Shown: positions 39,362 to 59,888, counted from the first letter of the stretch. The stretch is DNA of 64,000 nucleotides from Patescibacteria group bacterium (GCA_018971045.1 JAGWVF010000001.1:11480-75479); one strand, 5' to 3'. Numbers and translations: made by a program. The notes: generated by a model from the letters alone, not told the origin.

Positions 39362-39410
39362 AAATGAGGCAACAAAATAAGATGTAATCGTTATAAGTTC
39401 GAGCATTCTG

Positions 39411-39525: not shown

Positions 39526-39895
39526 CAGAATGCTCGAACGTATATATAAACGAATACGATTGGCAATGAATATCGTGATATGCAGGATTCCGCACGAGAG
39601 ACTGGACTTATTAGTACTCCTCGGCTCCATACCTTGCGGTACTTCCACCTAGAGCCTATCAACGTGGTCATCTCCCACGAGTCTCATAACGATTCCTAAT
39701 CTTGGGGCCCGTTTCCCGCTTATATGCTTTCAGCGGTTATCGGAACCCGACATAGCTACTCGGCGGTGCCGCTGGCGCGACAGCCGATAGACCAGAGGTC
39801 AGTTCATCCCGGTCCTCTCGTACTAGGGACAAACCCCCTCAAGAATCAACGCCTGTAGTAGATAGGAGACCAACCTGTCTCACGCATCTCGTTAA

Positions 39896-42344: not shown

Positions 42345-42376
<32 letters not shown>

Positions 42377-42952
42377 TCACTGTTTATGAGTCCTCACTTC
42401 CTTGTGGATGTACTGAATGTCGATTTAGGGGCCTTAAGTGGCGATCAGGGCTCTTCCCCTCTCGTTCGATGGAGCTTCGCCCCCACCTACTAACTGCCGC
42501 CCGGGCCTCTGGTATTCGGAGTTTGATAGGAACCACGAGATTTCTCCCTGTTGGTCCCTTCCAGTGCTCTACCCCCAGAGGCACATATGGCGACGCCAGC
42601 CCAAAAGCTGTTTCGGAGAGAACCAGCTATTCCCAGATTCGATTAGCTTTTCACTCCTTACCACAAGTCATCCCAAGACGTTGAACGATCTACGGGTTCG
42701 GGCCTCCAGCTGTCTTTCGACAACCTTCACCCTGCTCATGGTAAGCTCATCTGGCTTCGGGTCGTATATATCCTACAATCGCGCTATTCACGCTCGGTTT
42801 CCCTTAAGCTCCGCCCCGGAAGGGCTTAGCTACGCAAGATATACACACTCGCCGGCTCATTCTTCAATAGGCATGCCGTGACGGAATGGCTTGCGCCATC
42901 CGCTCCGACCCCTTGTAAGTACACGGTTTCAGGTCTATTTCACTCCCCTCTC

Positions 42953-42986
<34 letters not shown>

Positions 42987-43666
42987 TCACTATCGGTCAT
43001 AGGACGTATTTAGCCTTACCGGTTAGTTCCGGCGGATTCAGTCGAGCTATTCGTGTCTCGACCTACTCAAGAATATGAACGAGAGTCGTCATGCATTTCA
43101 CATACGGGGCCATTACCCTCTGGGGCGCTGCTTCCCAACAGCTTCTGCTATACAGACGATTGGTAACTCTCTACGTACAAGTACGCTGTTCACATCTTAC
43201 AACCCCCCACTCCGAAGAGCGGGGTTTGGGCTTCTCCCTTTTCGCTCGCCGCTACTTGGGGTATCACGCGAGTCGCGTTCCATGCCGCCGAAGCATCGGC
43301 CGCACAGAACGCAACTCATATTGTTCTCTTTTCCTCCTGGTACTGAGATGTTTCACTTCCCAGGGTTCGCTTCACGCAAGCGTTACCTCGCGGATCAGAG
43401 TTCAAAACTCTGGGGTTTCCCCATTCGGAGATCTCCGGATCAAAGGCTACAAACCGCCTCCCCGAAGCTTTTCGCAGGTTAGTCGCGTCCTTCATAGCCG
43501 TCCTAGGCCAAGGCATCCACCGTGCACTCTTATTGTCTCTCGTGCAGAGACCTACATATCACGCGCACACTATATCCTCTCCCGCGCCGAAACCACTCCC
43601 GGCACGGGAAAGTTCATTACCAATGCATATTCGTGTATCAAAAATCAGTGTCCTCCGCTCGAAACG

Positions 43667-43690
43667 AAAACCGCCCCTCGGGGCGGTTTT
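43667..43690. terminator. Bidirectional intrinsic terminator between the surface-protein gene and the 23S promoter region
   Basis: AAAACCGCCCC-TCG-GGGCGGTTTT with U-runs on both strands. Confidence 0.65.
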
Positions 43691-43833
43691 CGTGTGCGCT
43701 ATGCACCCGAGGCCTCACGGCCTATCCGCTCCTAGAAGTGAAGATTTTCGGTTCGTAGACACGTGAAAGAGAGTATAGACGAGAGCGTCTGTGGCGTCAA
43801 TAGTCCCCTGCAGAGCTCTCGCGCAGAGCGGTA

Positions 43834-45525: not shown

Positions 45526-45581
45526 AGCGATAAGTATACACTCACCTCCTCCCGCTCTGGTGGTTCAACCCGCCCCAATAC

Positions 45582-45625
45582 AGTGGATAAACAATTTGTG
45601 CGTTTCTATAGAACACTTATCCACA
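45582..45625. promoter_or_regulatory. Pair of inverted DnaA-box-like motifs in an AT-rich intergenic stretch
   Basis: TTATCCACA (perfect 9-mer consensus, 45617..45625) and its inverted partner AGTGGATAA (45582..45590), 26 nt apart, in a locally AT-rich 45.58-45.66 kb. Confidence 0.35.
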
Positions 45626-46013
45626 ATAATGTCCTTTACAATGTCTTTGAGTACCTTAGTATCAGTACAGGAGCGACGGGAGTGAGCATTCACCGAACGC
45701 CGCTAGCGACTGTTCCTTCATAGATCTTTTCGGCATCAGAGTGCTATCGAGCGAGTCCCTGCCCACGCACGCGGCGATCCGCGACACAAGCCCCTCGGCA
45801 TGGCTTCTCACATTGAAAAGCACTGGAAGATGCAATCAGCACATAAATTCAAAACCGCCCTCTTTCTCGGTCCGGACGCACTAAATAGTAACGCCCTCTC
45901 TCCTTTTCGCGACCGGCCACTTGGGTGGTTTTGTTATTTTCAGGAAGTTTTACGTAAAACACTTTTCACATATTACCGGTTCACGTGGAACATCAGACTG
46001 CGATTTCGACGAT

Positions 46014-47477
46014 CTAACAGACGTGATGCTTTTCCATTATGGATTTTATTTCCTCATCTTCTGCGGCTTCTCTTCTCTTTTTACCTGCTTCTCCCAGATT
46101 TTTAAGTCCTTCATCATTAATTTTCAACAATTCTGATGTTCTTTTATCAAGATATTCATTAGTATTTTTTGAAGGCTCATCAAGAATCTCCTCAAGAAGC
46201 GCGTTGAGAGTCCAACCGATTCTTGGACCAGGTTCCACGTGGAACATCTCAATGATATGCCCGCCATTAGTCTTTAGCATGCCGACAGAGATAGGGTCGC
46301 GGAGGGCTTGTTCTACCATTGCCTTATATTTGCGGAATCGAAATGGCTGTTCCTTTGGCCTTCCGGTGCCGATTCGATCGCAAATGCGAAGATTGAGCAA
46401 ATCCCATATATTTTCCTCACCGACATTCTTTATCATTCGCCTTACCGCGGAGAGCGTAATCTGATCCGGATCAGAAAAAAACATATGCCAACGCACCAAT
46501 TTTACGACTTTATCAATCGTCTCTCGAGGGAAATGAAGGTATTCGAGAGCTTTCTTTGTTACACGTGAACCAACTACCTCATGGCCATGGAAAGTCCAAT
46601 CTCCCTTTTCGTCTGACCAACGGCGTGTCTCTGGTTTTGAAATGTCATGGAAAAGTCCGGCGAGGCGAATATCGAAATTCCAACCCTTATCGGCGGCATG
46701 TTGCATCGTTCTCATCAAGTGTTCAAAAACGTCATAGCTATGCGCCTGATTCTGTTCGATACCGACGCCTCGAATTAAATCAGACGATATGTCCTCGAGA
46801 ATACCGAGCTTTTGAGCGAAAACAAGCGCATTCATCGGCTGATTGGAATTAAGTATTCGTATGAGCTCGTCTCTGACTCTTTCACGTGAAACTTGGCTCA
46901 AATGCTTGCTATTCTCGCTGATCGCTTCTGCAGTCGCTCCATCAATACCGAATTCAAGTTCAGCAACGAGCCGTACCGCCCGAAGCATTCTCAGGGCATC
47001 TTCATTAAAGCGTTCAGAAGGATTCCTTACGGCGCGAATGAGTTTGTCCTTTATGTCCTTTTCCCCTTCGTAGGGGTCAACGATTTGTCCTTTATCTTCA
47101 TCGTACGCAATCGCGTTTATCGTAAAATCCCGCCGCGCGAGATCCTCGAGAAGGGACGTGCCGAAAGCGACCGAGTCGGGACGGCGCTTGTCAGAATATC
47201 CCGACTCGGTCCGGTAGGGAGTCACTTCAATAATAGCGAGGCACGAATTCTCGGAACCGGTCTTTACTCCCACTGTACCGTAATCGTTTTCATAAAAAGA
47301 ATCAGGAAATACGGACTGGATCTGATCCGGTGTGGCGTTCGTGGTAATGTCCCAATCCCTCGGTTCTCGCCCAATGATCAGATCGCGAACGCAACCGCCG
47401 ACCAGATACGCTTCGTACCCGGCGCTCCGGAGCGCCCGGCTGACCGTTCCCACCTCATTTGGAATTCGATATTCCAT
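46014..47477 (-). CDS. cca: CCA-adding enzyme / tRNA nucleotidyltransferase with HD domain
   Basis: AYLVGGCVRDLIIGREPRDWDITT (Pol-beta NT motif), ...RRDFTINAIAY..., HD domain HDISKPETRR...HGHEVVG. The start is taken at internal MEYRIPNEV. Confidence 0.85.
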   Translation of the reverse strand: MEYRIPNEVGTVSRALRSAGYEAYLVGGCVRDLIIGREPRDWDITTNATPDQIQSVFPDSFYENDYGTVGVKTGSENSCLAIIEVTPYRTESGYSDKRRPDSVAFGTSLLEDLARRDFTINAIAYDEDKGQIVDPYEGEKDIKDKLIRAVRNPSERFNEDALRMLRAVRLVAELEFGIDGATAEAISENSKHLSQVSRERVRDELIRILNSNQPMNALVFAQKLGILEDISSDLIRGVGIEQNQAHSYDVFEHLMRTMQHAADKGWNFDIRLAGLFHDISKPETRRWSDEKGDWTFHGHEVVGSRVTKKALEYLHFPRETIDKVVKLVRWHMFFSDPDQITLSAVRRMIKNVGEENIWDLLNLRICDRIGTGRPKEQPFRFRKYKAMVEQALRDPISVGMLKTNGGHIIEMFHVEPGPRIGWTLNALLEEILDEPSKNTNEYLDKRTSELLKINDEGLKNLGEAGKKRREAAEDEEIKSIMEKHHVC

Positions 47478-47537
47478 TGACGAATCGTAGCATGGCCAGA
47501 CTGGTTTTTTAGCTTTTGTGCCGTACACTCTAGCTAC

Positions 47538-47609
47538 GCCCTCGTGGTGAAATGGATATCACGACAGTCTTCGGAACTGTAGGTCCAAGTCCGATTCTTG
47601 GCGAGGGCA
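47538..47609 (+). tRNA. tRNA-Arg (anticodon TCG)
   Basis: GCCCTCG-TG-GTGA-AATGGATA-TCAC-G-ACAGT-CTTCGGA-ACTGT-AGGT-CCAAG-TCCGATT-CTTGG-CGAGGGC-A. Perfect cloverleaf, no encoded CCA. Confidence 0.8.
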
Positions 47610-47671
47610 CCTTTCCACCGCTCTAAAAACGAATCCTATATAATTGAACTCAGGTCATATATAATTGCAGG

Positions 47672-48355
47672 ATGCGAAAAGACAAGGAGATAGCTTCAAA
47701 AATGCGAAAAGAGGGTAGAAGTTACGATGAGATCTATAAATCCCTGCATATTCCGAGAAGCACACTTTCTCATTGGTTTTCTAAAGAGGCGTGGTCTGAA
47801 GAAGTGCGGGCTCGAGTCTCTCAGGCTGCCGAGGAGAGGCGCGCCGTCCGTCTCGCTATCCTGAACAAAGTGCGCGGCGAGCATCTGGCGAGAGCCTACG
47901 AGACAGCCCGATCGGAAGCGGCGAGAGAGCTCGCCGTACTCAAATACGATCCGCTTTTCATTTCCGGCGTCATGCTCTATTGGGGAGAGGGGGCGAAAGA
48001 TCCGAAACAAGGGGTGAAATTTACTAATAGCGACCCTAAGATGGTGCGGTTTTATACGAGATTTCTTTTGAAATCATGCCGGATTCCCGTGGAGAAAATA
48101 AAAGCGCATGTATTGATTTCTGAAGATCACGAAGAGAAGACGACTCGGGCGTATTGGATAAAAATAACCGAATTGCCGAGAGAGAACTTCACCAAGAGTT
48201 CTCTTATTGCCGGCCGGCATGCGAAACGACGATTCGGGTGGGGGGTCTGTACCATTACCGTCTCTAGCACTTACTTCAAACAAAAGATTCTGGAGTGGAT
48301 AAGACTTCTCCCGGAGGAATTGCTCGAGGAGGCATATTATGAGAATATAGCGTGA
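47672..48355 (+). CDS. Stand-alone HTH (resolvase/transposase-type) plus LAGLIDADG-like domain protein
   Basis: N-terminal KEGRSYDEIYKSLHIPRSTLSHWF helix-turn-helix. C-terminal ...FISGVMLYWGEGAKDPKQGVKFTNSD... resembles a single LAGLIDADG motif followed by beta-rich K/R-containing segments. The gene stops 4 nt before tRNA-Gly. Confidence 0.45.
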   Translation: MRKDKEIASKMRKEGRSYDEIYKSLHIPRSTLSHWFSKEAWSEEVRARVSQAAEERRAVRLAILNKVRGEHLARAYETARSEAARELAVLKYDPLFISGVMLYWGEGAKDPKQGVKFTNSDPKMVRFYTRFLLKSCRIPVEKIKAHVLISEDHEEKTTRAYWIKITELPRENFTKSSLIAGRHAKRRFGWGVCTITVSSTYFKQKILEWIRLLPEELLEEAYYENIA

Positions 48356-48359
48356 GCGC

Positions 48360-48430
48360 GCGGGTATGGTTCAATGGTAGAACATCTGGTTGCCAATCAG
48401 ATGATGGGAGTTCGATTCTCCCTACCCGCA
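48360..48430 (+). tRNA. tRNA-Gly (anticodon GCC)
   Basis: GCGGGTA-TG-GTTC-AATGGTA-GAAC-A-TCTGG-TTGCCAA-TCAGA-TGAT-GGGAG-TTCGATT-CTCCC-TACCCGC-A, a perfect cloverleaf. Confidence 0.85.
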
Positions 48431-48584
48431 CCGACGAGACAAAGAAGAACTGCCTCATTTCAGAGACGCTGTGAATATATGGGGATAAATCTGTGTCTAT
48501 TGGGGATAAAAGACGCTGTCTATAACGCCTCTTGCTCGACAGTCCGATAATATACTAAGGAGATGAGCCATATTTCTTAAGGCC

Positions 48585-48980
48585 GTGAACCTTTCTTCTA
48601 AGACGCGCAGGGAAATCGGAAATCTTGGGGAAAAACTGGCGGCCGAATACCTGCGCCGCTACGGATTCACCCTGCTGGACCATAATGTCGCGCGCAAGAC
48701 CGGTGAGATCGATCTCATCGCTCTGAAGGGAGAGACGTTGCATATTATTGAAGTGAAAACCGTCGTAGCCGACGAATTTCCTTCCGAGAAAGGAGCGGGC
48801 GATGACTATGACCCATCGCTGAATCTCCACGAAACAAAGATACGGAAAGTAGTCCGTACCGGAGAGTGGTATGTCCTTGAAAAACGGTGGGAAGGGGAGT
48901 GGCAGGTGGACGGCATTCTCGTGTGGCTGCGCCGAAGAGACGGGATAGCGCGGGTGAGCTACTTGCCTCAGATCGCATAA
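48585..48980 (+). CDS. yraN: YraN-family (UPF0102) endonuclease
   Basis: GTG start; G..GE..A..YL..GF..L..N.....GEIDLIA...L..IEVK, a YraN-type sequence. Confidence 0.8.
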   Translation: MNLSSKTRREIGNLGEKLAAEYLRRYGFTLLDHNVARKTGEIDLIALKGETLHIIEVKTVVADEFPSEKGAGDDYDPSLNLHETKIRKVVRTGEWYVLEKRWEGEWQVDGILVWLRRRDGIARVSYLPQIA

Positions 48981-49003
48981 CGGCCTCTCATTATCTTGTT
49001 TTA

Positions 49004-49074
49004 TCGGGCCGCCGAGAATTGAACTCGGTCTACGTGCTCCCAAAGCACGCGTACTACCGGCATACTCCGGCCCG
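49004..49074 (-). tRNA. tRNA-Pro (anticodon TGG)
   Basis: Minus strand: CGGGCCG-GA-GTAT-GCCGGTA-GTAC-G-CGTGC-TTTGGGA-GCACG-TAGA-CCGAG-TTCAATT-CTCGG-CGGCCCG-A. Position 8 is G, slightly atypical. Confidence 0.7.
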
Positions 49075-49114
49075 TTCCTCGTCCGAGGATGCTTGTACTC
49101 TAACAGCTTTCTGC

Positions 49115-50239
49115 TTATTGCGGCAGATGAGCGATGAGCACTTTCTCGAGGCCGACCGCCGCCGGGACAAAGCCTGAAATAGCGTCGGAAATAGGGAGCG
49201 CGAGGAGCGCGTCGAGCGGCTGGCCTGTTTCATTCTCATATTCAGACCGGATATACGTTGAAGAAATCGCGTCAAGCTGCCGCGAGGCGGTCGCTCCCTC
49301 CATAGTGCTTGTCGTGATGGTTCCCGCGAGCTCGCCAAGAGCGTTTGCGACGCCCCCGCCTGAAGATCCTTCCTGAGCGGCGGCCGAACCCCCAAGCGCG
49401 TATACGTCAATACTATTTTTCGCGAACGTGTAGACGTCCTTTATCGAGCCGAACACAATCGTCGGCGAGAGATCGGACTGTATCTGGGAATAATTGAGGA
49501 ACTGCGCCCCATAGGATCCGATGACGACCGGCGCGCCCTGGACGAGCGCCTTTTCCGAGAGCGGCGACGAAGGGAACGAGGTTGGCAACGGCAGAGAGGT
49601 AAGCGAACCGGTGATTCCCACGAACGCGAAATCGCGCTCGCCCGTCCCGCTCGGGCTCGCCTCGGTAAGCACGCTCGCATTGTCTTTGATCCATTCTGCG
49701 GGAATATACATGAGCGCCGCCGTATACTGATCGGTCGCCGGACTGCCGGTACGTATCTTGCAGACAACGCCGCGGTCAGCAAGAAGGAAATACTGGGCAA
49801 TGTGCGCGTTGGTAAGGATAATCCCCTTGGGATCAACAAGAACTCCGCTACCGCTCACCGAATGGAGGCCGCCGCCGATAGGGGAGTAACAGATAATATT
49901 CACGAGCGAGTTTCGGAGGGTGTCTGCCGCTATGTTGAGACTTGCGCTTACCGCCTGAGCGATCTCCGCAGACGAAATGGATGATGCCGGCTCCGCCGTT
50001 TTCTTCTGTGCGGTTGACGCGGCGGCGCTTGCCGCTCTCGTCCGTCCAGAAGGAAGCGCCGGAGTCGATGTCGCCAAGAGGATCGGGTGATTCGATACCC
50101 GCGAGATCTCCGACGAAGAAGCGCTGACCGATGGATAGGGAAGAGCCGTCGGCGGATGCGCATTGCCGATAAACGCCATGACGACGAAGATCGTCAGGAG
50201 AGCGGGGAGGGTATACCACAGCGGCTTCAATCGTCTCAC
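49115..50239 (-). CDS. Membrane-anchored trypsin-like serine protease (S1/HtrA-like)
   Basis: N-terminal TM. GSGVLVDPKGIILTNAHIA (His), ...GSSGGGV... (Ser). An Ala/Ser-rich linker joins them. Confidence 0.7.
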   Translation of the reverse strand: MRRLKPLWYTLPALLTIFVVMAFIGNAHPPTALPYPSVSASSSEISRVSNHPILLATSTPALPSGRTRAASAAASTAQKKTAEPASSISSAEIAQAVSASLNIAADTLRNSLVNIICYSPIGGGLHSVSGSGVLVDPKGIILTNAHIAQYFLLADRGVVCKIRTGSPATDQYTAALMYIPAEWIKDNASVLTEASPSGTGERDFAFVGITGSLTSLPLPTSFPSSPLSEKALVQGAPVVIGSYGAQFLNYSQIQSDLSPTIVFGSIKDVYTFAKNSIDVYALGGSAAAQEGSSGGGVANALGELAGTITTSTMEGATASRQLDAISSTYIRSEYENETGQPLDALLALPISDAISGFVPAAVGLEKVLIAHLPQ

Positions 50240-50314
50240 TGGTATACGCTAGCGTAAAAATGGTAGTCTTGCACTATGCGAAAGCGGGCTTACCCGCCGT
50301 AGCTTCAAGCCCAT

Positions 50315-50385
50315 GCGGGATTAGTTTAATGGCAGAACGTCAGTTTTCCAAACTGAGAGCAGGAGTTCGATTCTCCTATCCCGCA
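50315..50385 (+). tRNA. tRNA-Gly (anticodon TCC)
   Basis: GCGGGAT-TA-GTTT-AATGGCA-GAAC-G-TCAGT-TTTCCAA-ACTGA-GAGC-AGGAG-TTCGATT-CTCCT-ATCCCGC-A. Confidence 0.85.
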
Positions 50386-50455
50386 CACTGGTCAGAGACC
50401 GATTTTGAGACTGCGAGGCCTCAAGGTCAGTCCGCAACCACGAGCCCTATTCAAG

Positions 50456-50485
50456 CGAAAAGCGCGACCGAAATCGCGCTTTTCG
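50456..50485. terminator. Bidirectional terminator between tRNA-Gly(TCC) and the serine recombinase gene
   Basis: GAAAAGCGCGA-CCGAAA-TCGCGCTTTTC. Confidence 0.65.
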
Positions 50486-50486
50486 C

Positions 50487-51812
50487 TTAGTCAGCGAGCG
50501 TCACTACGCCATCATTCATGATCAACCGATCGCGCAGATGCTCCAATAACTCACGCTTCTCCTCCTTGGTCCCGTTCTTCAGAAGGTACTTCGCGTACTT
50601 CCGGATATCCATCTCCTTCGCCTTCAACGCTCCCTTTACGCCCTCCACCTCCGCACGGAGCGTGTTATACCGTGCCACCTCGCGGTCTATAAGGTGTCGA
50701 GCCCCGATCTCATCGAGCGACACCTTGTCTATGAGCCCCGCCAGCTGCCCAATAATCTTTTCTTCGCGCAAGTATGGATTCTTGCAGTTCGGGTCCTTGG
50801 CTCGCGAGCAGGAGTAGTAAATATGGGTGACAGGTTCGCCTGTCGCTAGGGTTTTGGTCTTTTCCTGAGCCGTGATGCCCGAGCCGCAATATCCGCAGGT
50901 GAGAAGCTTCGTAAAGCTCCACTCCTTGAACTTATGCTTCGGCCGATTCTCCTCGGCAATTTTCTCCTGCACTGCCTGAAAAAGTTCCTGTGTGATCAAG
51001 GGTTCGTGCTTGCCCGTATACCAACTTCCCGAACCACGCGGATACTCGAAGACGCCGCAGTAGAAGGGGTTCTTCAGCATCTTATAGAGCGCTGACAGAT
51101 TCATATCCTTGCCGAATTTGGAGACGAAGCGCACGTCCGACTTAAGCCATGCATGCACCTTCCGCCCGCTCCAGCGCTCGTTTCCGATCTTCTCGAATAT
51201 CCTCTTTACGATAGGAACGCGAATCGGGTCGATTACAACTTCGCATCTGTGATCCTTGCGACCATCATTCAAATATCCGGTCGGTGCAATGCCAGGCCAC
51301 AGTCCCATCTCCACTCGTGCCTTCAACCCTCGTTTCACGTTGATGCGCTTATTATCGTTCTCGAGCTTCGCCTGCGACCCGAGAATCATCAGGAGGAACT
51401 TTTCATTCGGGTTGTTCGTGAAGCGCTGACCGTATGTTCGGATATCAATCAAATGCTTGCTGTCCATCAAGTCGACGATGCGTCCTAGATCTCCGGCATT
51501 TCTTGAAATGCGGTCCGGTGCCCACGTCAATATCCCGTTGAATTTCTGGTTCTTTAGTTCCTCGACTATTTCGTTAAATACCGGCCGCGCTCCGGCCTCT
51601 TTTGCCGAATGCGATTCGCGCTTTACTTCGACTATCTCTAGCTTCTCCTTCTCTGCGAGTGCGAGCATCTCCTTGATCTGGCTCTCGATGGAGAGCACCT
51701 GCTGTTCCTCGCTTTCCGTACTCTTTCTTGCATATAGGCAGTATCGGATCGGTACCGCCTCCAAGAGAGGAGGAGCCGCTCCGAAACCGCCCTGAATCGT
51801 TGCTGCTTCCAT
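50487..51812 (-). CDS. Large serine recombinase (resolvase/invertase catalytic domain + recombinase domain + zinc ribbon + coiled coil)
   Basis: [14 protein letters not shown] (catalytic Ser), ...[18 protein letters not shown]..., zinc ribbon [13 protein letters not shown]...THIYYSCS, C-terminal coiled coil. Confidence 0.85.
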
Positions 51813-51935: not shown

Positions 51936-52931
51936 ATGTCGCAAGATTTTGCATTTATTCCCGCTAAGCTGAAAGAAGGCGATCTCGCTCGAGTTATTTC
52001 CTTCGGCCTAAGCCTGAAGGGCGCGTCCTTGCCTCAGCGGGAAATCTGCAACGCAAATCTTGCACGGCTTGGAATCAGGGTTTCGTTCGGAAAGCATGTC
52101 GAAGATAGCGACGAGTTCGATACTTCACCGATAGCGGCAAGAATAGAGGATTTGCATTCAACGTTGCAAGATTCGGAAGTAAAGCTGATTTTATCTGGAC
52201 TAGGCGGCATGAATGCCGCGCAAATTTTACGTTCTGTTGATTGGAAGTTGCTATCAGAGAACCCGAAGATCTTTTGCGGATTTTCTGATATGGCCGCCCT
52301 CGTCAACGCAATTCACGCTAAGACAGGGCTCATAACCTATTACGGCCCATTCTATGGAACCTTCGGAATGCAGAAGGGTTTTGAATATATGCTGGACTCG
52401 TTCGATAAGTGCCTTTTTCATTCGGAACCCTACCTGGTCGAACAGTCTCCCATCTGGAGTGATGACGCTTGGTGGCTTGATCAAGAAAACAGAACCTTCC
52501 ACGAAAATCCTGGCCCGCTAGTCTTTACCGAAGGATATGCCGAGGGACGATTGATTGGAGGCCACTTAACCTCGTTCGCAACACTTTTTGGAACCGAGTT
52601 CTTCCCAGATTTGTCTGACTCTATCCTGATGGTCGAGGAAAATAGCGAAATACGCCCGCGCTCGTTTGACCGACTGCTGCAAAGCCTGCTGTACCAAAAG
52701 GGATTCGAGAAGGTAAAAGCCATTTTAATTGGGCGGTTTACCCGAGCAACAGGAATCACCAATGAAATTCTTGTCACGATACTCAAGAATTATCCGGAGC
52801 TTTCGCGAGTCCCTGTAGTGGCGAATCTGAGCTTCGGGCATACCTATCCCCAATTTACTTTTCCGGTAGGAGGGATCGGTCGAATAGAGGCTAAGAGCGG
52901 AACGGCGATTCTTGAGATTAAGGAGCGCTGA
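51936..52931 (+). CDS. LD-carboxypeptidase / MccF-like peptidase S66
   Basis: 331 aa. FCGFSDMAAL is the catalytic Ser motif of S66. Also ...VANLSFGHTYPQFTFPVG (catalytic His region) and IGGHL. Confidence 0.75.
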   Translation: MSQDFAFIPAKLKEGDLARVISFGLSLKGASLPQREICNANLARLGIRVSFGKHVEDSDEFDTSPIAARIEDLHSTLQDSEVKLILSGLGGMNAAQILRSVDWKLLSENPKIFCGFSDMAALVNAIHAKTGLITYYGPFYGTFGMQKGFEYMLDSFDKCLFHSEPYLVEQSPIWSDDAWWLDQENRTFHENPGPLVFTEGYAEGRLIGGHLTSFATLFGTEFFPDLSDSILMVEENSEIRPRSFDRLLQSLLYQKGFEKVKAILIGRFTRATGITNEILVTILKNYPELSRVPVVANLSFGHTYPQFTFPVGGIGRIEAKSGTAILEIKER

Positions 52932-52952
52932 ACTCTGCACGAACCGCGGATG

Positions 52953-54059
52953 TTAGATATCAAGTTTCAAAACCTCTTTTAATTCACTTACGCTTGCGTA
53001 TTTAGACTCATCGAGATCAGAAATATTCTGGACATGCCAGGAGTTCGGATTCTTAAAGTGAACCGCCTTAACGCCAGCTTCGAGAGCTGGCTCTATGTCC
53101 GAGCGGAGGCTGTTCCCGACCACGATAATCTCCCCAGAGCTGAATGGAAGATCGCCCTTCAGTTTCTGTAAACTCGTCGTGCTCTTCGATTTGACGACAC
53201 ATAAGGCATGAAAATGCTCGGCTAAGTTAGAACGAGCCACTTTCTCGAACTGGATGCCAAGAGGTCCTTGTGTATAGAGAACTAGGCCGTCGCCGCGCTT
53301 TTCTAGCTCCGTCAGGATTTTCACGACATCAGGAACCAGTGCCTCCGGCTGATTCTTGAGAGTCGGTACGATAGACTCAAACAGTTTTGTGGGACGAGGT
53401 ATGTCCGCCTCTGTGGTGAGGGTCTTGTATACAGTTTCCAGAGATTTGAGGAAGCCGTAGGCACCGAAGCCAATCTCCTGAATCGTTTTCTCCTCGGTTT
53501 CATCTATTAATTGACGGACCTGCTCCTCGGTCGTATTTTTCAGGTACGGACGGCAATGCTCTATGAAAGCGTCGACGATTTTCGCGTATGCAATATTATC
53601 CTCCCAAAGGGTGTCGTCGCCATCGAATACCCACGTGCGATTAAAGGGCCCAAGTGCTGAAGGTGTCTTGCAAAAGTAGTATTCGCCTTCTTCCGGAAAA
53701 AGAATCGGGATTCGATGATCTCCCTCCGCGAATTTGCTGAATAAATAGGAAAAGTTTTGCGGAGTAATCTCTCCGGGAAGCGGTTCCCAGACTACCGAAA
53801 ACCCAGCTTCCTCGATTGCTTTCAGTTTTCGAGGATTGTTGCTGAGCAAAGCAATATTCTTTATTCCCAGGTCGCGCAAGATTTTGAAAGCAAGCGGATA
53901 CATCCGGCCGTCGACCTCGAAATTGAGTTTCTCATAAGCACCATAGGTGCTCACGCATTGCGATTGCATCGTGTACATGCCGAGATACTTAGCAAAAATC
54001 CCCGCGCCGCGCCCTTCTTGGAAGATGTGAATGAGGACGCCATTTTGTTTTCTGAGCAC
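52953..54059 (-). CDS. C-terminal part of a GTP cyclohydrolase II-like domain fused to a HAD-superfamily phosphatase
   Basis: IHIFQEGRGAGIFAKYLGMYTMQ...ILRDLGIKNIALLSNNPRKLKAIEEAGFSVV matches the RibA C-terminal half. WVFDGDDTLW is HAD motif I; VVGNSLRSDIEPALEAGVKAVHF is HAD motif IV. Confidence 0.6.
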   Translation of the reverse strand: MLRKQNGVLIHIFQEGRGAGIFAKYLGMYTMQSQCVSTYGAYEKLNFEVDGRMYPLAFKILRDLGIKNIALLSNNPRKLKAIEEAGFSVVWEPLPGEITPQNFSYLFSKFAEGDHRIPILFPEEGEYYFCKTPSALGPFNRTWVFDGDDTLWEDNIAYAKIVDAFIEHCRPYLKNTTEEQVRQLIDETEEKTIQEIGFGAYGFLKSLETVYKTLTTEADIPRPTKLFESIVPTLKNQPEALVPDVVKILTELEKRGDGLVLYTQGPLGIQFEKVARSNLAEHFHALCVVKSKSTTSLQKLKGDLPFSSGEIIVVGNSLRSDIEPALEAGVKAVHFKNPNSWHVQNISDLDESKYASVSELKEVLKLDI

Positions 54060-54077
54060 GTCGATTGAACGCAGTAG

Positions 54078-54344
54078 CTAACTTCGGCAGTCGCAATCGA
54101 AGCTTCCCAATATATCGCTGTTCGCGCACGACGAGTGCAGCTGTATCGGAACCGTTCGTGACGTATCGAACGAGTCAGGGTCCGTGAATAGAGCGACCAA
54201 TGCAGTCTGCTTATCATCAGAATAAATGCAAGAAAAAGTCACGCCTGTATTTGTAAAATGCTTTACGAAGGGAGTCTTCTTCGTGTCATCGTCGACTCGG
54301 ATTGTGGGGTCGTAGTCGCTTTCTTTTGGTGCGTGCAGGTCCAT
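54078..54344 (-). pseudogene. N-terminal zinc-binding part of GTP cyclohydrolase II, separated from the downstream part only by an in-frame TAG
   Basis: ...IQLHSSCANSDILGSFDCDCRS-TAG-LLRSIDVLRKQNGVLIHIFQEGRG..., same frame and colinear with RibA (HSECLTGD...SLRCDCGFQLE...QEGRGIGL). Confidence 0.5.
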
Positions 54345-54356
54345 AAGTTTTTATGA

Positions 54357-57155
54357 TTAATTTATACGCAAATTGAATCGCACGGGTCCGGTTGAAAGTT
54401 CGACATTATGTTTCCCGTCGTCTGAATGCTCCACCCGAACGCTATCTTTCGTTGAGAATCCTTCATTCTTGCGCGCTTCGGCCACTGCGCGCGCAAATGC
54501 ACGCTCGTCTCCCTCGGCGATGAGTTCCTGTGTCAAACGTGTATCAAGCGAAAGGGAATCCGCGTGCATTATCACATTTTTTACGTTTACTTCATCTGCA
54601 AGCACGGTCGCCAATTCTTCTGGAATCGTTCTTGGAATTGAGAACGAGGGAAGCGGCTGGCGCACCACAATGCCGGCTTTCTGTCGGAGCATAAGCGCCT
54701 CGCTCGCAAGCGTGCGAACATCTGCCATAGCTTCGATTAACTCCGTATTTGCCTCATGCCTATCCGGCCACTCTGCCAGATGCACACTTTCTGGCTCGCC
54801 CTCTTCCCGTACTGAACGGTATATCTCGTCAGAGACAAACGGCATGACGGGTGCGACAAGCAGGGCGGTATGTTTGAGAACGAAACGCAATGTGGCGCGC
54901 GCGGCATCTGCATCCGGGCCATCTTCCTTGAAACGGTCGCGTGAGCGGCGCACGTACCATGCAGAAAGGTCATCAATAAAGGCCGAAAGTGGGCGTGTAG
55001 CCGAGTCGAGAGCATAATGCTCGTATCCTTCCGTCACCTCTTTAATAGTCTTATCCAAACGCGCAACTATCCAGCGGTCCAAAACATGAGTACTCATTCT
55101 GTTCGCCGTAATTCCCGTATCGTGAAGCGTATAGAAGGAAAGCACATTCCGGAGCCGACCAATGTTCTTTTTCGCAATCTCATCAACGCCCTTCTCAGAA
55201 AAAGCGAGGTCTTCAGCAACGACAACCGATGAGGATAGCAGATAAAAACGCATCGCGTCCGCCCCGTATTTCTCGACTACTTCCATAGGATCGGGATAGT
55301 TTTTGAGGCGCTTCGACATCTTCTTTCCGTCCTCAGCAAGAACGATGCCGTTCACGATGACGTTTTCGAACGCGTGCTTGTTGAATAGCGCTCCCGCGAG
55401 TACATGAAGATAGTAAAACCATGCGCGGGTCTGATCCTGTCCTTCGCCAATAAATTGTGCCGGAAACGCAGAATCAAATTCTTGCTTATCCTCAAAAGGA
55501 TAGTGACGCGAGGCATACGGCATTGAGCCGGAATCGAACCAAGTATCGAGAACGTCCGGTATGCGCCGCATTACACCACCGCAAGAACACGGAACGACGA
55601 TTTCATCCAAGACGTGCTTATGCAAGTCATCAATGCGCTCTCCGCTCGCTTCCTCCAACTCGGCTACGCTCCCGAAGACCTTACGCGCCTTGCATTCTTC
55701 GCATGTCCACATCGGAATAACGCTTGCCCAAAAGCGCTGGCGCGAGATAGACCAGTCGCGAGCGCCTTCGAGCCACTTACCGAAGCGCCCTTCCTTGATA
55801 TGTGCGGGCGACCACGCCACATCCTTTGCCGTCGCAAGTAAGATGTCTTTGATCTTCTCGATGGCGATGAACCATGATGAAGTCGCGTAGTTCAGGAGCG
55901 GCGTGTCGCACCGCCAGCAATGCGGATACGCATGGGCGATGTTCTCTTTTGAGAAGAAGTTGTCGTTATCCTGTAGATGCTTAAGAACGGCAATGTCAGT
56001 CGCGAGCCTGACCCGATCATCGTCAGACTTCGGCTTTACTTCCATGCCCGCAAAAGCGAGGACTTCTGGCTTCATCGTGCCGTCCTCGTTTACATGCTGT
56101 ACGAAGGGCAAATGCTCTCTTTTGAGGAGTTCCCAGTCGTCGGCGCCGAACGCCGGTGCCTCGTGTGCAATGCCGGTACCGGTATCCGCAGTGATAAAGT
56201 CTGCCGCATATACCTTCCATCCGTTTTCGCGATTCTTGAGGTTCGCATCGGAAGCGTAATAGTCGAAAAGCGGCTCGTACTCGAGTCCGACAAGTTGCCG
56301 CCCTGAAAATTCCAGTCCTGAATTCGCATCACTCAGCCCGAGAGCCGCCATCCGCTCCTTTGCGACCACATAGTATTTTCCGTTCTCGTATTGAACCGCG
56401 CGATAGGTGATGTCGGGACCGACGGCCAACGCCACGTTTCCAGGCAGCGTCCACGGCGTAGTCGTCCATGCAAGTAAATGGACATCCTGACCGATACCTA
56501 ACTCGGACAGCGCGGCAGTGGACTTTGCTTTAAACTTCACAGTGACCGCGATATCCTTCACGTCCTTGTATCCTTCCGACACCTCCGTCTGCGAGAGCGT
56601 CGTTTCGCAGCGCGTGCAGATATGCATGGAGCGATAATCCTCATATACGAGTCCCTTGTCGTAGATCTGCTTGAAGACCCACCAAACGCTTTCCATGAAC
56701 GACTTGTCCATCGTTCGATAGGCATTCTTCATATCAGCCCAGCGACCGATGCGAGGAATGATCTTCTCCCACTCGTTCACATAGGTGAGCACCTGTTCGC
56801 GACAGCGCTCATTGAACTTTGCGACTCCGTACTCTTTTATGTCTTTCTTATGCTTGAAGCCAAGCTCCTTCTCGACAATATTCTCGATCGGAAGTCCGTG
56901 GCAGTCCCAGCCCCACACACGGGGGACGTGATAGCCGCGCATAGTCTTATAGCGAGGTATGGCATCCTTGATCACGCTCGCCACGATATGGCCGTAGTGC
57001 GGGAGCCCTGTCGCAAATGGCGGGCCGTCGTAGAATGCAAATTCGCCTTTTGGGGCGCTTTTCTTGAGCGATTTTTCGAAGATTTTATTTCCTTCCCAAA
57101 ACTCAAGGATTTCCTCCTCTCGTTTTGCCGCGTCTGATTTTCCCATTTCCTCCAT
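54357..57155 (-). CDS. ileS: Isoleucyl-tRNA synthetase
   Basis: PHYGHIVASV (HIGH), WTTTPWTLPGN, KMSKRLKNYPDP (KMSKS), CWRCDTPL zinc knuckle. The start is taken at MEEMGKSD, 4 nt after the TauD stop; the track ORF 54357..57317 overlaps TauD. Confidence 0.9.
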   Translation of the reverse strand: MEEMGKSDAAKREEEILEFWEGNKIFEKSLKKSAPKGEFAFYDGPPFATGLPHYGHIVASVIKDAIPRYKTMRGYHVPRVWGWDCHGLPIENIVEKELGFKHKKDIKEYGVAKFNERCREQVLTYVNEWEKIIPRIGRWADMKNAYRTMDKSFMESVWWVFKQIYDKGLVYEDYRSMHICTRCETTLSQTEVSEGYKDVKDIAVTVKFKAKSTAALSELGIGQDVHLLAWTTTPWTLPGNVALAVGPDITYRAVQYENGKYYVVAKERMAALGLSDANSGLEFSGRQLVGLEYEPLFDYYASDANLKNRENGWKVYAADFITADTGTGIAHEAPAFGADDWELLKREHLPFVQHVNEDGTMKPEVLAFAGMEVKPKSDDDRVRLATDIAVLKHLQDNDNFFSKENIAHAYPHCWRCDTPLLNYATSSWFIAIEKIKDILLATAKDVAWSPAHIKEGRFGKWLEGARDWSISRQRFWASVIPMWTCEECKARKVFGSVAELEEASGERIDDLHKHVLDEIVVPCSCGGVMRRIPDVLDTWFDSGSMPYASRHYPFEDKQEFDSAFPAQFIGEGQDQTRAWFYYLHVLAGALFNKHAFENVIVNGIVLAEDGKKMSKRLKNYPDPMEVVEKYGADAMRFYLLSSSVVVAEDLAFSEKGVDEIAKKNIGRLRNVLSFYTLHDTGITANRMSTHVLDRWIVARLDKTIKEVTEGYEHYALDSATRPLSAFIDDLSAWYVRRSRDRFKEDGPDADAARATLRFVLKHTALLVAPVMPFVSDEIYRSVREEGEPESVHLAEWPDRHEANTELIEAMADVRTLASEALMLRQKAGIVVRQPLPSFSIPRTIPEELATVLADEVNVKNVIMHADSLSLDTRLTQELIAEGDERAFARAVAEARKNEGFSTKDSVRVEHSDDGKHNVELSTGPVRFNLRIN

Positions 57156-57159
57156 ACGG

Positions 57160-57996
57160 CTATTCGTTTGGGGCGAAACCAATACAAGCCTGCTCTTCGC
57201 TCGACGAGATACCGTCAAACCAGAGACGATGCAATTTTCTCGGATCATCGGACTCAAAAGCCGTTCTTCCATGGAGGACGGTAAAGTTATCGGTGAGCAG
57301 CACTTGTCCTGCTTCAAGCCGGAAACTTACTAGATTCTTTTCCTCTGAAAGAAAATCATGCACAAGGCCGACCGCTCTGCGTACATTTGAATTTTCTGGG
57401 GAGCGCACAGCTTCGTCCGCTCTGTAGCGAATCGCGAGGCGATTATTTAAATATGTTCTAAAAACCGCCCCTGAGAACGATTTCGCTGCGCGATTAATGA
57501 AAAGAGCGTCTTCGCGATAAAGCGACTCCAAGGCTTCTTTATCCGTCGATGAAAGCCAGTCGTGCAATTTCTTCCCGCTTGCCAGCTGAGTAATACCGCC
57601 TTGGCGTGCCGGTATCTCGCATCGCAGAGCAACAATCGGAGGAGGGTTTACATCGTATGAGCCATCGGTGTGAAATGTATAAGCTCGAGAAGAAATGCCG
57701 GGGTAAACGGAAGATTCGTCGATTACGGCAACTTCGGTAATGTCGTCATCGTCAGATCGATCATGGCTCATTGTTTTGCCAAAAAGTTCCTTGAAACACA
57801 GCAGTTGATTTCTAGGCGGTTCTTCCTTTTCAAATTGAACAATGGCAACTCCGTATGTATCGAGAAGGCTGATGATTGAGTGTGCCGATCCAACGATTTC
57901 CTCTGACGAATGTACTGACACTAAAAGCGCCTCGGGAGCAAGTTCGGAGCCGAATGCCTGTTTAGGATTTTTGTCGCAATTTCCGGAGGATTCCAT
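57160..57996 (-). CDS. TauD/TfdA-family Fe(II)/2-oxoglutarate dioxygenase
   Basis: FHTDGSY (H-x-D), VLHGRTAF (distal His), R near the C-terminus. The start is uncertain: the track ORF extends to 58149 and overlaps the upstream gene. Confidence 0.7.
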   Translation of the reverse strand: MESSGNCDKNPKQAFGSELAPEALLVSVHSSEEIVGSAHSIISLLDTYGVAIVQFEKEEPPRNQLLCFKELFGKTMSHDRSDDDDITEVAVIDESSVYPGISSRAYTFHTDGSYDVNPPPIVALRCEIPARQGGITQLASGKKLHDWLSSTDKEALESLYREDALFINRAAKSFSGAVFRTYLNNRLAIRYRADEAVRSPENSNVRRAVGLVHDFLSEEKNLVSFRLEAGQVLLTDNFTVLHGRTAFESDDPRKLHRLWFDGISSSEEQACIGFAPNE

Positions 57997-58031
57997 AATA
58001 TTTTGGGCCGAAGCCCTGGCATCTAGTTTAT

Positions 58032-58862
58032 TCAAATTTTCTTGAACGAAATAACATCGCCAACATTGATGCCGAGCTCCCGAGCGCCCAATTTGCGTGC
58101 CTGCCCCAGTTCCCAAAGGCCAAATGAGCTGCCAGGGAAGAACGCCCAATCTCCGGTTTCAAGAGACATGAGACGTGGCTCATATACCGCATTAATCTTG
58201 TGATCCCTAATCATTACCTCGTAACGATCTCCTGGAGCAACTGGTCCGATATCTCCGGTAAATTTCATCATTCCAAAATTATCAATATGCACGATAGTTC
58301 CCGGCTTGAGATTAAGCCGAACGATCCCGTTCGGGTCGATCGCTTCCCCGAGTTCTGAAAGCGGCGTACCGCGAGCTGCTGCCGCGGCGACTTTTGCAGT
58401 TACATACTTTCCAGCGAACGAAACGAATTGCCCGACATTGTATTTCGTAAGGTCGTAGAGCTCCGCGCATCCGAAATCGCGGGTAAGCCAATCAAAACTA
58501 CCCATGTTCCTGCCGATAAAAACTATGTTGCGCTCCTTCGTTCTTCCGATTACATTCATCGGCCGCACTTTTTCGGCATTGATCGTAGTCATCAGAACGC
58601 TATTTTCCGGGTACGAATCAGCCATGAGCCGAACGGCGAAGTTGGTGTTAATTATGGAAAATGCTGGGGAAATGGGGGTAATGGGGGCAACTACGACATC
58701 CGGTATATTCTCGACTTCATGCGCGAGTACCGCCCAAAGCTCATTGGCCGCGATGTCTACACACTCTGTGATGTTTACCAAGTATTTCTTCACGCTCGAA
58801 ATATAACACGAAATAGCAGAAAAGCTGAGTAATTCCCGTTCCCTTATCGAGATACGAACCAT
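58032..58862 (-). CDS. DUF62 / SAM hydroxide adenosyltransferase-like protein (fluorinase-chlorinase fold), divergent N-domain
   Basis: KVAAAAARGTPLSELGEAIDPNGIVRL and IVHIDNFGMMKFTGDI resemble the SalL/FlA C-domain ([25 protein letters not shown]; RIDRxFGN). IGRNMGSFDWL resembles the VGPNNGLLSFAL motif. The N-terminal D-x-G SAM-binding motif is not recognisable. Confidence 0.45.
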   Translation of the reverse strand: MVRISIRERELLSFSAISCYISSVKKYLVNITECVDIAANELWAVLAHEVENIPDVVVAPITPISPAFSIINTNFAVRLMADSYPENSVLMTTINAEKVRPMNVIGRTKERNIVFIGRNMGSFDWLTRDFGCAELYDLTKYNVGQFVSFAGKYVTAKVAAAAARGTPLSELGEAIDPNGIVRLNLKPGTIVHIDNFGMMKFTGDIGPVAPGDRYEVMIRDHKINAVYEPRLMSLETGDWAFFPGSSFGLWELGQARKLGARELGINVGDVISFKKI

Positions 58863-58922: not shown

Positions 58923-59888
58923 GCAATAGAGATTTGTTGCCGCGAGAAAGAGGCCCTATATCTGAATCCCTGGTATGAGGTCGTCGCGAATGATAACGAG
59001 GCGATGGTCATATCGCTGTACGCGAAGGGCCTCACGACCCGCGATATCGCAAGCTATATGCGCAGTCACTATGGCATGGAATTGTCCCAGCCTGCCGTCT
59101 CCGGCATTACCGACAAAGTGTACCCGCTCGTGAAGGAATGGCTCTCGCGTCCTTTGGCCGTGTCCTATCCGATCGTCTATCTCGACGGCCTTCACTTCAA
59201 GGTGCGGGACGCCGGGAAGATAGTGTCGAAGATCGCGTACATCGTCCTTGGCATCAATCCGTACGGGAATAAGGAAGTGCTCGGCATCTGGATCAGCGAT
59301 TCCGAAGGAGCGAAGTTCTGGATGCACGTCCTGAACGACCTGAAGAATCGCGGCGTCGACGACATCCTTATCGCGTGCGTCGACGGCCTCAAGGGATTCC
59401 CGGATGCGGTCAAGTCCATCTATCCGCAAACGGAAGTGCAGGTCTGCATCGCACACCAGATACGGAACACCATCAAATTCCTGCCGATCAAGGATCGCGA
59501 AGGATTCTGCCGCGACTTGCGGGAGGTGTACACCGCCTCGACCGAGAGCGCCGGCCTCGACGCGCTCCACACGATGATGCAGAAATGGCCGCAGTATCGC
59601 GGATACTTGAAAAGCTGGGAAGACCGCTGGGCCGAACTCACGCCCTTCTTCGAGTATCCGAATCCTATACGCCGCATGGTGTATACCACCAACATGATCG
59701 AGAATCTGAACCGGCAGTTCCGTAAGGTTACGAAAACGACCACGATCTTCCCGCATGACGAATCGCTCATGAAGCTCCTCTGGCTCGCCCAGAACGATCT
59801 TGCACAGGGAAGACTCGTCGCGCTTAGGAATTGGAGCGAGGTCATGGCTCAGCTCTCGATCCTCTTCGGTGAGCGTGTGCAGTTCTAA
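58923..59888 (+). mobile_element. 5'-truncated IS256-family (mutator-type) transposase remnant
   Basis: ...MVISLYAKGLTTRDIASYM...YLDGLHFKVRD...ILIACVDGLKGFPDAVKSIYPQTEVQVCIAHQIRN...RYLKSWEDRW...TTNMIENLNRQFRKVTK match IS256 Tnp residues ~100-400. The N-terminal ~100 aa are absent and the upstream frame is closed by a stop at 58920. Confidence 0.8.

Follow-up and report, generated by a model that had tools for sequence, protein, structure and literature searches.

A conserved Patescibacteria gene block combines an isoleucyl-tRNA synthetase with a diverged SAM_HAT-fold protein in a candidate nucleoside antimetabolite module

Gene content of the block

The window analysed here is a stretch of 64,000 nucleotides from a Patescibacteria group bacterium (GCA_018971045.1, JAGWVF010000001.1:11480-75479), chromosomal DNA of a member of the Paceibacteria that carries 23S and 5S rRNA genes, five tRNA genes and the genes for RNase Y, HU and RarA. 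Towards its right-hand end lies a five-gene module encoding an S66 serine peptidase, a fusion of GTP cyclohydrolase II (GCHII) with a HAD domain, an isoleucyl-tRNA synthetase (IleRS), a TauD-family dioxygenase and a diverged member of the S-adenosylmethionine (SAM)-dependent SAM_HAT (DUF62/chlorinase/fluorinase) fold, referred to here as DUF62L. As the same combination of enzymes occurs in an antibiotic-type cluster of the actinomycete genus Kitasatospora, the block probably makes, or protects against, an IleRS-directed nucleoside compound. Gene identities were assigned by profile searches against Pfam and NCBIfam, and the closest solved structures by profile and sequence comparison with the PDB. 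The module comprises the following features (ORF, open reading frame):

51973..58793, both strands: five-gene module S66 / GCHII-HAD / IleRS / TauD / DUF62L, delimited by blastn colinearity with positions 10001-16837 of locus L007
51936..52931, plus strand: S66 serine peptidase of the MccF-like branch, 331 amino acids (Pfam Peptidase_S66 6e-25, S66C 9e-28)
52953..54344, minus strand: GCHII-HAD fusion with one in-frame stop (Pfam and NCBIfam)
52953..54059, minus strand: 3' ORF of GCHII-HAD (Pfam GTP_cyclohydro2, C-terminal part, 6e-19; HAD 3.5e-8)
54078..54344, minus strand: 5' ORF of GCHII-HAD (GCHII N-terminal part, 2.5e-4, just below the Pfam cut-off)
54078..54080, minus strand: in-frame TAG in GCHII, located by alignment to homologues
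54357..57155, minus strand: type 2 isoleucyl-tRNA synthetase, 932 amino acids (Pfam tRNA-synt_1, Anticodon_1 and DUF5915; NCBIfam TIGR00392)
57160..57996, minus strand: TauD-family Fe(II)/2-oxoglutarate dioxygenase, 278 amino acids (Pfam TauD 1.4e-29)
58032..58793, minus strand: DUF62L, diverged SAM_HAT fold, 253 amino acids (Pfam SAM_HAT_N 8e-8, 32.6 bits against a cut-off of 26.3)

All five identities proposed in the initial annotation were recovered by Pfam or NCBIfam profiles at the positions where it had placed them, including the DUF62-like and TauD ORFs. The tight packing of the minus-strand genes was likewise borne out, with gaps of 35 nt between DUF62L and TauD, 4 nt between TauD and IleRS and 12 nt between IleRS and GCHII, a spacing that makes their co-transcription plausible; consensus scans for promoters and terminators performed no better than on shuffled sequence. 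Other details needed amendment. The S66 gene, which had been described as facing the operon, is convergent with it, tail-to-tail rather than head-on, with 21 nt between both stop codons; gene callers and homologues begin DUF62L at 58793 and not at 58862; and the supposedly split GCHII-HAD ORFs belong to one reading frame broken by the single TAG at 54078-54080. In TauD the HxD...H motif can be read in the translation (FHTDGS, VLHGRT), and the closest solved structures (7n7v, FrbJ and TmpA) are weakly similar.

Recurrence and mobility of the block

The full module, for which neighbourhood mining had been suggested, also occurs in two further genomes at other chromosomal sites (compared loci are cited by number, L001 and so on). 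In a Parcubacteria metagenome-assembled genome (MAG; L007) the whole block aligns by blastn in a single colinear segment with 66.5% DNA identity, and in a Paceibacterota MAG (L009) three aligned segments with 70-73% DNA identity cover most of it. The corresponding protein identities are 82-89% for DUF62L, 64-69% for TauD, 70-71% for IleRS, 67-78% for GCHII-HAD and 71-79% for S66. Given this colinearity with L007 and L009, the gene arrangement is not due to chance. Partial modules are present in L014 (S66-TauD-DUF62L-GCHII), L015 (GCHII-HAD, S66, DUF62L and TauD) and L018 and L029 (S66, GCHII-HAD, a P-loop protein, DUF62L and a PrpD-like protein), and L011 and L013 carry the pair TauD-DUF62L.

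The flanks of the complete module differ in all three genomes, consisting of dnaK/dnaJ and an ABC transporter in L007, a 7TM sensor kinase in L009, and recombinase and insertion sequence (IS) genes in the window. The module also differs in composition from its surroundings, with a GC content of 0.50 versus 0.568 in the rest of the window and a GC content at third codon positions of 0.45-0.60 in its genes versus 0.67-0.78 in the flanking genes. Three features adjoin it:

50315..50386, plus strand: tRNA-Gly(UCC), beside the recombinase (ARAGORN, Rfam)
50487..51812, minus strand: large serine recombinase at the left edge (Pfam Resolvase, Recombinase and Zn_ribbon_recom domains; CcrB/XisF-like by NCBIfam)
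59004..59888, plus strand: 5'-truncated IS256-family transposase at the right edge (match begins at model position 106 of 379 in Pfam and 67 of 338 in NCBIfam)

The transposase gene lacks its first ~70-100 codons and lies ~210 nt from the start of DUF62L. Integration of an island by the serine recombinase was considered and set aside, as no direct repeat joins the tRNA-Gly/recombinase side to the IS256 side; comparison of 50.3-50.5 kb with 58.8-59.0 kb gave no convincing att-type direct repeat or duplicated tRNA end. Because such repeats are absent, mobility is argued from the GC content, the differing flanks and the adjacent recombinase and IS genes only. Judged from these sequence comparisons, the block is a conserved, horizontally mobile unit. 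An anti-phage defence system was ruled out, since none of the PADLOC models matched any of the six proteins tested. Between the tRNA-Gly gene and the recombinase stop codon lies an inverted repeat with perfectly matching arms of 15 bp and a loop of 6 nt (50453-50488), likely a bidirectional terminator.

DUF62L, a deep subfamily of the SAM_HAT fold

A profile built from 18 DUF62L family members gives no more than weak matches to the PDB entries 2zbu (2.6e-13), SalL (1.6e-7) and fluorinase (~1e-4), and the Pfam match covers the N-terminal domain only. An AlphaFold (AF2) model with a pLDDT of 91.7 was compared with solved structures by Foldseek, which returned 40 chains of SAM_HAT proteins with TM-scores of 0.75-0.82 and E-values of 1e-13 to 1e-19 at 15-22% sequence identity. 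According to this model, DUF62L is predicted to have the two-domain fold of SalL, FlA and PH0463.

SAM hydroxide adenosyltransferases activate water by an Asp-Arg-His triad. Alignments of DUF62L with MJ1651 and the T. maritima protein using hidden Markov models show the Asp replaced by Asn or another residue (TIN), the Arg kept as the invariant R77 and the His replaced by Ala (SFAGK). The divergence from DUF62 pointed out in the initial annotation thus corresponds to a deep subfamily in which the Arg is the one triad residue retained. The subfamily possesses invariant motifs of its own (TDCxDIAANE, GRNxGxFDWLTRD, HIDNFG and FPGSS) and is rare, amounting to 56 clusters at 50% identity among 1.84 billion representatives (E<=1e-30); the window protein is 82-93% identical to its relatives. 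Since the triad Asp and His are replaced, the motifs are distinct and the family is rare, the chemistry of DUF62L probably differs from hydrolysis or halogenation.

DUF62L neighbourhoods across genomes

In order to place the module in a wider context, one genome per GTDB species was scanned, which yielded 57 DUF62L loci whose neighbouring ORFs were clustered and annotated. The loci are distributed over many classes of Patescibacteria, DPANN archaea, Chlamydiae, Holosporales, Streptomyces, Kutzneria, Actinoplanes and Melghiribacillus. In one recurrent arrangement (A), a PPDK_N/PEP-mobile kinase-like protein, an alpha/beta-hydrolase, DUF62L and a small uncharacterised protein are followed by TrpRS or TyrRS, and in another (B) a P-loop kinase, an AsnB-like protein and an uncharacterised protein precede DUF62L, after which come a radical SAM protein or enolase, a sulfotransferase, CysD and CysN-CysC. 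Falkowbacteria-type loci of arrangement B have an IleRS 5-7 kb downstream of DUF62L; two of these, in genomes of the candidate phyla radiation (CPR), show the radical SAM variant (L035 5895-18976 and L040 5883-20160). Arrangement C is the TauD/GCHII-HAD/S66/IleRS set of the window, arrangement D consists of DUF62L directly beside TyrRS or IleRS, and arrangement E combines it with HIT, Ldh_2 and PEP mutase in Chlamydiae-type loci.

Among the 223 proteins within three genes on either side of DUF62L at 46 loci, aminoacyl-tRNA synthetases (aaRS) make up ~9% in a Pfam tally, with 13 of Trp/Tyr type, 5 of Ile type and 2 of Cys type, counts that are inflated by shared ancestry, as the loci represent about seven independent arrangement types rather than 46. 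As a rough, uncomputed estimate, class I aaRS would be expected to account for 1-1.5% of genes in such genomes. No class II aaRS family appears in the top Pfam lists of the tally, and the scores of the neighbouring TrpRS and TyrRS exceed the equivalog cut-offs of NCBIfam. DUF62L shows a link to class I aaRS genes (Trp, Tyr, Ile and Cys), which repeatedly adjoin it. In Melghiribacillus thermohalophilus DSM 25894 (L037 7662-13105) a PPDK_N-like protein, DUF62L, TrpRS, an uncharacterised protein and a second TrpRS are encoded in a row. This species is a cultured member of the Bacillaceae and thus a tractable organism for the link between DUF62L and aaRS genes.

At the loci with HIT, Ldh_2 and PEP mutase (L051, L052, L054, L056 and L058, from MAGs labelled Chlamydiae, Holosporales, Alphaproteobacteria and Saccharibacteria), DUF62L is sometimes duplicated or fused (to ~500 amino acids), and the gene content suggests that phosphonate chemistry may be tied to the family there.

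DUF62L also occurs in actinomycetes. One Streptomyces locus (L033) has it beside a PPDK_N protein and between two SARP regulators, another (L063) beside an AsnB-like gene within nonribosomal peptide synthetase (NRPS) modules, and in Kutzneria it occurs as TauD-MFS-DUF62L. Enzymes of the module are present at two Kitasatospora loci (L005 and L072), of which L072 includes an IleRS. The order in K. cineracea is HAD, GCHII, DUF62L, hydrolase, condensation domain, IleRS, MbtH-A-PCP, MFS and NRPS, and the sister strain Kitasatospora sp. NPDC085895 encodes TauD, ATP-grasp, carbamoyltransferase, SGNH hydrolase, HAD, GCHII, DUF62L, hydrolase and condensation domain, after which its contig ends before the position of the IleRS. 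The Kitasatospora genes appear to lie in one NRPS-type cluster. The IleRS in the K. cineracea cluster (1056 amino acids, TIGR00392 791 bits), which we assume to exist besides a housekeeping ileS, is 40% identical to that of the window. At this distance, two phyla each recruited their own IleRS to the same enzymes, which argues for a functional link and not for hitch-hiking.

The isoleucyl-tRNA synthetase

The window IleRS scores 881 bits against the ileS equivalog TIGR00392 (cut-off 621). Its phylogenetic type, for which the initial annotation had proposed a check, is type 2: type 2 structures in the PDB reach 680-708 bits (T. thermophilus 1ile 708, P. megaterium IleRS2 8c8v 693) versus 260-315 bits for type 1 (1ffy 314), and the C-terminal DUF5915 of type 2 enzymes is present. 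The HIGH and KMSKS motifs are intact (HYGH and KMSKR). Membership in the MupA/MupB group was rejected, as the score is 633-646 bits versus a cut-off of 1900. The best 120 database relatives are all IleRS of Paceibacteria, Kaiserbacteria or Minisyncoccia with 66-74% identity.

In four relatives without DUF62L (L066, L068, L070 and L071), ileS resides in a strongly conserved Paceibacteria block of the order DHFR-dcd-thyA-glyA-argS-ileS-recO-CLIPPER-like-class II aaRS-AI-2E-metS-tatD-rpsF. In the window, L007 and L009, ileS is inside the module and outside this block, and the argS-ileS-recO block is not present in the 64-kb window. In a neighbour-joining tree the module-linked IleRS fall into two neighbouring clades within a star-like radiation, a topology that hints at a single origin. 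The proposal that the IleRS arrived horizontally is partly supported by its location outside the argS-ileS-recO block, in a low-GC block by a recombinase and an IS remnant; its sequence is typical of the lineage. A self-resistance type of IleRS, which had also been envisaged, was not borne out: the HYGH motif is canonical, and no resistance-type substitutions were found. The differences from the IleRS that reside in the conserved block amount to a few peripheral, lineage-specific changes, and the RAWF, HYGH and KMSK regions are the same. A G-to-A change in RGWF was considered as a mark of module-linked IleRS and dropped, because RAWF was found on inspection in all Paceibacteria IleRS.

Two side observations concern this synthetase. 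The block from DHFR to rpsF would be useful as a synteny marker for displaced aaRS genes in Paceibacteria. Some Patescibacteria IleRS of 1127-1142 amino acids (L070 8001-11417, L012 4677-8105 and L049 11857-15240) contain an inserted histidine-phosphatase (His_Phos_1) domain at residues ~440-655, which is found even in IleRS encoded within the argS-ileS-recO block, and free-standing His_Phos_1 homologues occur near DUF62L at two loci (L029 2440-3084 and L049 1602-2141).

The S66 peptidase and the GCHII-HAD fusion

The best PDB matches of the S66 peptidase are the MccF-like B. anthracis protein BA_5613 (4e5s, 3e-89) and Listeria Lmo1638 (both in the range of 1e-88 to 1e-89), followed by true MccF (1e-31 to 1e-37) and LdcA (1e-16 to 1e-20). 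The scores favour the MccF branch, and thus the enzyme does not group with the murein carboxypeptidases, in agreement with the MccF-like assignment first given to it; membership in the LdcA equivalog NF008424 was rejected at 97 bits versus a cut-off of 378. The Ser-His-Glu triad (GFSD, SFGHT and VEEN) aligns with the residues of 4e5s. At eight loci, which fall into three arrangement types, an S66 gene lies close to DUF62L. Its best reading is that of an MccF-like amidase with a putative immunity role, although we know of no function for BA_5613 or Lmo1638, its nearest relatives.

In GCHII-HAD, the in-frame TAG stands where all homologues and E. coli RibA have an invariant Gln (CDC-x-x-Q-L), and therefore reflects a CAG-to-TAG change. 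In each of L007, L009, L018 and L029 the homologue is encoded by one ORF, of 460-472 amino acids. Recoding of TAG was ruled out, because TAG is an ordinary stop in the window that ends 11 of the 48 long ORFs. The same TAG is present in L001, an independent Logan assembly of the organism. The three Zn-binding Cys of GCHII and the DxDxT motif of the HAD domain are present, and the frame past the stop is undamaged, with 76-78% identity to homologues. As the stop is shared with L001, TAG is normally read as a stop and the frame is otherwise intact, GCHII-HAD is most simply interpreted as a very recent pseudogene in this organism.

Interpretation of the module

The reading that we favour, although we hold it only about as likely as not, is that the block both makes a nucleoside antimetabolite directed at IleRS and confers immunity to it, in which case the compound would most likely be adenosine- or purine-derived. 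At C5' of SAM, or of a related 5'-activated nucleoside, DUF62L would catalyse an SN2 displacement, with a nucleophile that is probably neither hydroxide nor halide, since the water-activating Asp and His are missing. GCHII-HAD could supply a nucleoside derived from GTP by ring opening and dephosphorylation, to be used as the nucleophile or as a second building block, and TauD would act as a tailoring oxygenase that hydroxylates or oxidises an intermediate. The IleRS of the module might be an insensitive copy of the target or, like SbzA, load isoleucine onto the warhead, and the MccF-like S66 enzyme would cleave the aminoacyl-nucleoside bond inside the producer.

Several observations weigh against this proposal. 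The module contains no exporter and, unless the IleRS itself fulfils this role, no obvious ligase for joining isoleucine. By sequence the IleRS is an ordinary, lineage-typical type 2 enzyme; comparison with its relatives in the conserved block revealed no diagnostic resistance substitutions at the inhibitor site, and, with no second ileS seen in the 64-kb window, it may be the only IleRS of the cell. The HAD domains of Parcubacteria and Kitasatospora are not detectably homologous by BLASTP beyond the superfamily level, so that what both settings have in common is a HAD-superfamily hydrolase adjoining GCHII and no closer HAD kinship. The pathway may have been recently inactivated in this genome, and the aaRS tally draws on few independent arrangements. 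No DUF62L family member has a known product, and a literature search found nothing on the subfamily, its link to aaRS or the function of BA_5613 or Lmo1638, matches to 'DUF62' being mostly DUF62xx numbers. The biosynthesis and immunity idea of the initial annotation hence gains from the position of DUF62L beside class I aaRS genes and from the NRPS-type cluster of Kitasatospora, and loses from the missing resistance substitutions and the interruption of GCHII-HAD.

Some of these points would suit an island that makes nothing and confers resistance to an aminoacyl-adenylate mimic of external origin, released by hosts or by neighbouring organisms such as actinomycetes. Such an island would consist of an insensitive IleRS and an MccF-like amidase together with enzymes that modify the compound, DUF62L by displacement or TauD by C5' hydroxylation at the 5' position and GCHII on the purine ring; AtsK and LipL are dioxygenases of this kind that hydroxylate C5'. 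The MccF-like S66 enzyme, the mobile-element flanks with the lower GC content and the want of an exporter and ligase are in line with it, as are the HIT hydrolases, another type of peptide-nucleotide resistance enzyme, that are encoded beside DUF62L at loci of Chlamydiae and Holosporales. We nevertheless consider it unlikely: in actinomycetes DUF62L, GCHII and TauD are found among NRPS, ATP-grasp, carbamoyltransferase, SARP and MFS genes as is typical of producers, five detoxifying enzymes against one compound would be unusual, the IleRS carries no resistance signature, and Kutzneria has only TauD-MFS-DUF62L. We hold as quite improbable an explanation by housekeeping functions, in which the single ileS of a host-dependent, reduced genome is co-located with nucleotide, cofactor and SAM salvage, DUF62L converting SAM to adenosine and methionine, GCHII-HAD acting on purines and S66 recycling murein peptides. 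Such an operon would account for the lineage-typical IleRS, for the window's single ileS and for the concentration of DUF62L in lineages with reduced genomes (Patescibacteria, DPANN, Chlamydiae and Holosporales). However, ileS is displaced from the gene block in which four relatives keep it, the same enzymes and an IleRS sit within an NRPS cluster in Kitasatospora, a host with normal salvage pathways, and the neighbouring aaRS are those for Ile, Trp, Tyr and Cys and never the MetRS that SAM salvage would predict. Moreover, the S66 enzyme stays far below the LdcA cut-off (97 versus 378 bits), and two residues of the hydrolase triad, Asp and His, are missing from DUF62L.

A further scenario, compatible with a biosynthesis-plus-immunity origin, is that of a decaying remnant, the pathway being non-functional in this organism and only the essential ileS and perhaps S66 being maintained; we see this as possible but the less probable state of the locus. 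The nonsense codon at an invariant GCHII Gln, found in two assemblies of an organism in which TAG is a normal stop, means that the pathway may be defunct here, and the truncated IS256 element at the block edge fits with decay. Yet this is a single lesion: the sequence of GCHII-HAD past the stop shows no damage, and the other ORFs are intact with their catalytic motifs and, for DUF62L, closely conserved among relatives. As natural sub-sets without GCHII exist (L011, L013 and Kutzneria), the rest of the module may still work.

Extending the biosynthesis-plus-immunity reading to the whole family, we tentatively propose, and would not be surprised to see it fail, that DUF62L enzymes are SAM:nucleophile 5'-adenosyltransferases using S, P, C or N nucleophiles to make a widespread, hitherto overlooked family of aminoacyl-adenylate mimics directed at class I aaRS (Ile, Trp, Tyr and Cys), with an insensitive or product-forming synthetase in each cluster. 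If this were true, ultra-small symbionts of the CPR, DPANN and Chlamydiae type would be producers of translation-targeting antimetabolites.

Relation to known systems

IleRS is a validated drug target (mupirocin), and no signpost to antibiotics of defined mode of action is more reliable than a cluster that includes a copy of its own target. Like microcin C with its immunity peptidase MccF, the module couples an S66 enzyme of the MccF branch to genes that would make a nucleotide-type compound, the presumed target being an aaRS. Unlike microcin C, it has no MccA peptide gene, no ThiF-like MccB adenylyltransferase and no MccC, MccD or MccE, its S66 enzyme is closest to BA_5613 and Lmo1638 and not to MccF itself, and its presumed target is the class I enzyme IleRS instead of AspRS. 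Mupirocin and thiomarinol resistance (MupM; clinical MupA/MupB) likewise involves a type 2 IleRS on a mobile or cluster-borne element; the window enzyme, however, scores far below the MupA/MupB cut-off and is ordinary for its lineage, and polyketide genes are lacking in the module.

With the PF01887 enzymes (SAM hydroxide adenosyltransferase, SalL and FlA), DUF62L shares the two-domain fold, the conserved Arg and the (H/V)ID-x-FG segment. It differs in its low identity, in the replaced triad Asp and His, in that the Asn of FGN is not kept, and in its genomic partners, which are aaRS genes and not purine nucleoside phosphorylase/aldolase pathways. To our knowledge, published nucleoside sulfamate clusters have not been reported with a DUF62-fold enzyme. 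The Falkowbacteria-type clusters L035 and L040, in which DUF62L is combined with CysD, CysN-CysC, a sulfotransferase, a radical SAM protein and the downstream IleRS, resemble those for ascamycin and nucleocidin in their sulfate-activating and sulfotransferase genes, and the window module departs from them in having no sulfur-activation genes. Sulfamylation of nucleocidin requires genes for 3'-phosphoadenosine-5'-phosphosulfate and sulfotransferases (PMC10946740).

In the sbz cluster for SB-203207 and SB-203208, the IleRS homologue SbzA loads isoleucine in building an Ile-sulfonamide IleRS inhibitor, and SAM serves as carbon-skeleton donor and not as methyl donor (PMC13518217). On the proposed reading, the module would share with it this use of SAM, the placing of an IleRS gene in a cluster for an IleRS inhibitor and the tailoring by a 2-oxoglutarate dioxygenase (PMC13518217). 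The sbz system is unlike it in its core enzyme, the pyridoxal phosphate-dependent SbzP, which acts on NAD and SAM, in the absence of a DUF62-fold enzyme, GCHII and S66, and in its restriction to actinomycetes.

Clusters that pair a target-copy synthetase with immunity of the MccF type are known in kind; what appears to be new is the chemistry centred on DUF62L and the occurrence in CPR bacteria. The module points to undescribed chemistry by a SAM_HAT-fold enzyme without water-activating residues, together with GCHII and TauD, in culturable Kitasatospora as well as in uncultured Parcubacteria. If confirmed, this would add a new reaction type to the fluorinase/chlorinase fold, provide an aaRS-inhibitor scaffold that is accessible in a culturable actinomycete, and imply that CPR bacteria, to which a minimal metabolism is usually ascribed, produce translation inhibitors or withstand them. 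DUF62L next to a class I aaRS could moreover serve as a rule for genome mining.

Other features of the window

The 23S rRNA gene on the minus strand (39592-43543) spans 3952 nt in its match to a model of 2925. The extra ~1 kb contains an ORF (40836-41354, minus strand) for a LAGLIDADG homing endonuclease (Pfam 4e-24) and is therefore probably an rRNA intron, which would explain the low GC content and paucity of ORFs at 40-43 kb. The 5S rRNA gene lies at 39411-39524. Five tRNA genes fall within 11 kb (39286-50386), encoding three tRNA-Gly isoacceptors (an ACC-reading anticodon call, GCC and UCC), tRNA-Arg and tRNA-Pro, and are interleaved with genes for a CCA-adding enzyme (46014-47528) and a trypsin-like protease (49115-50239).

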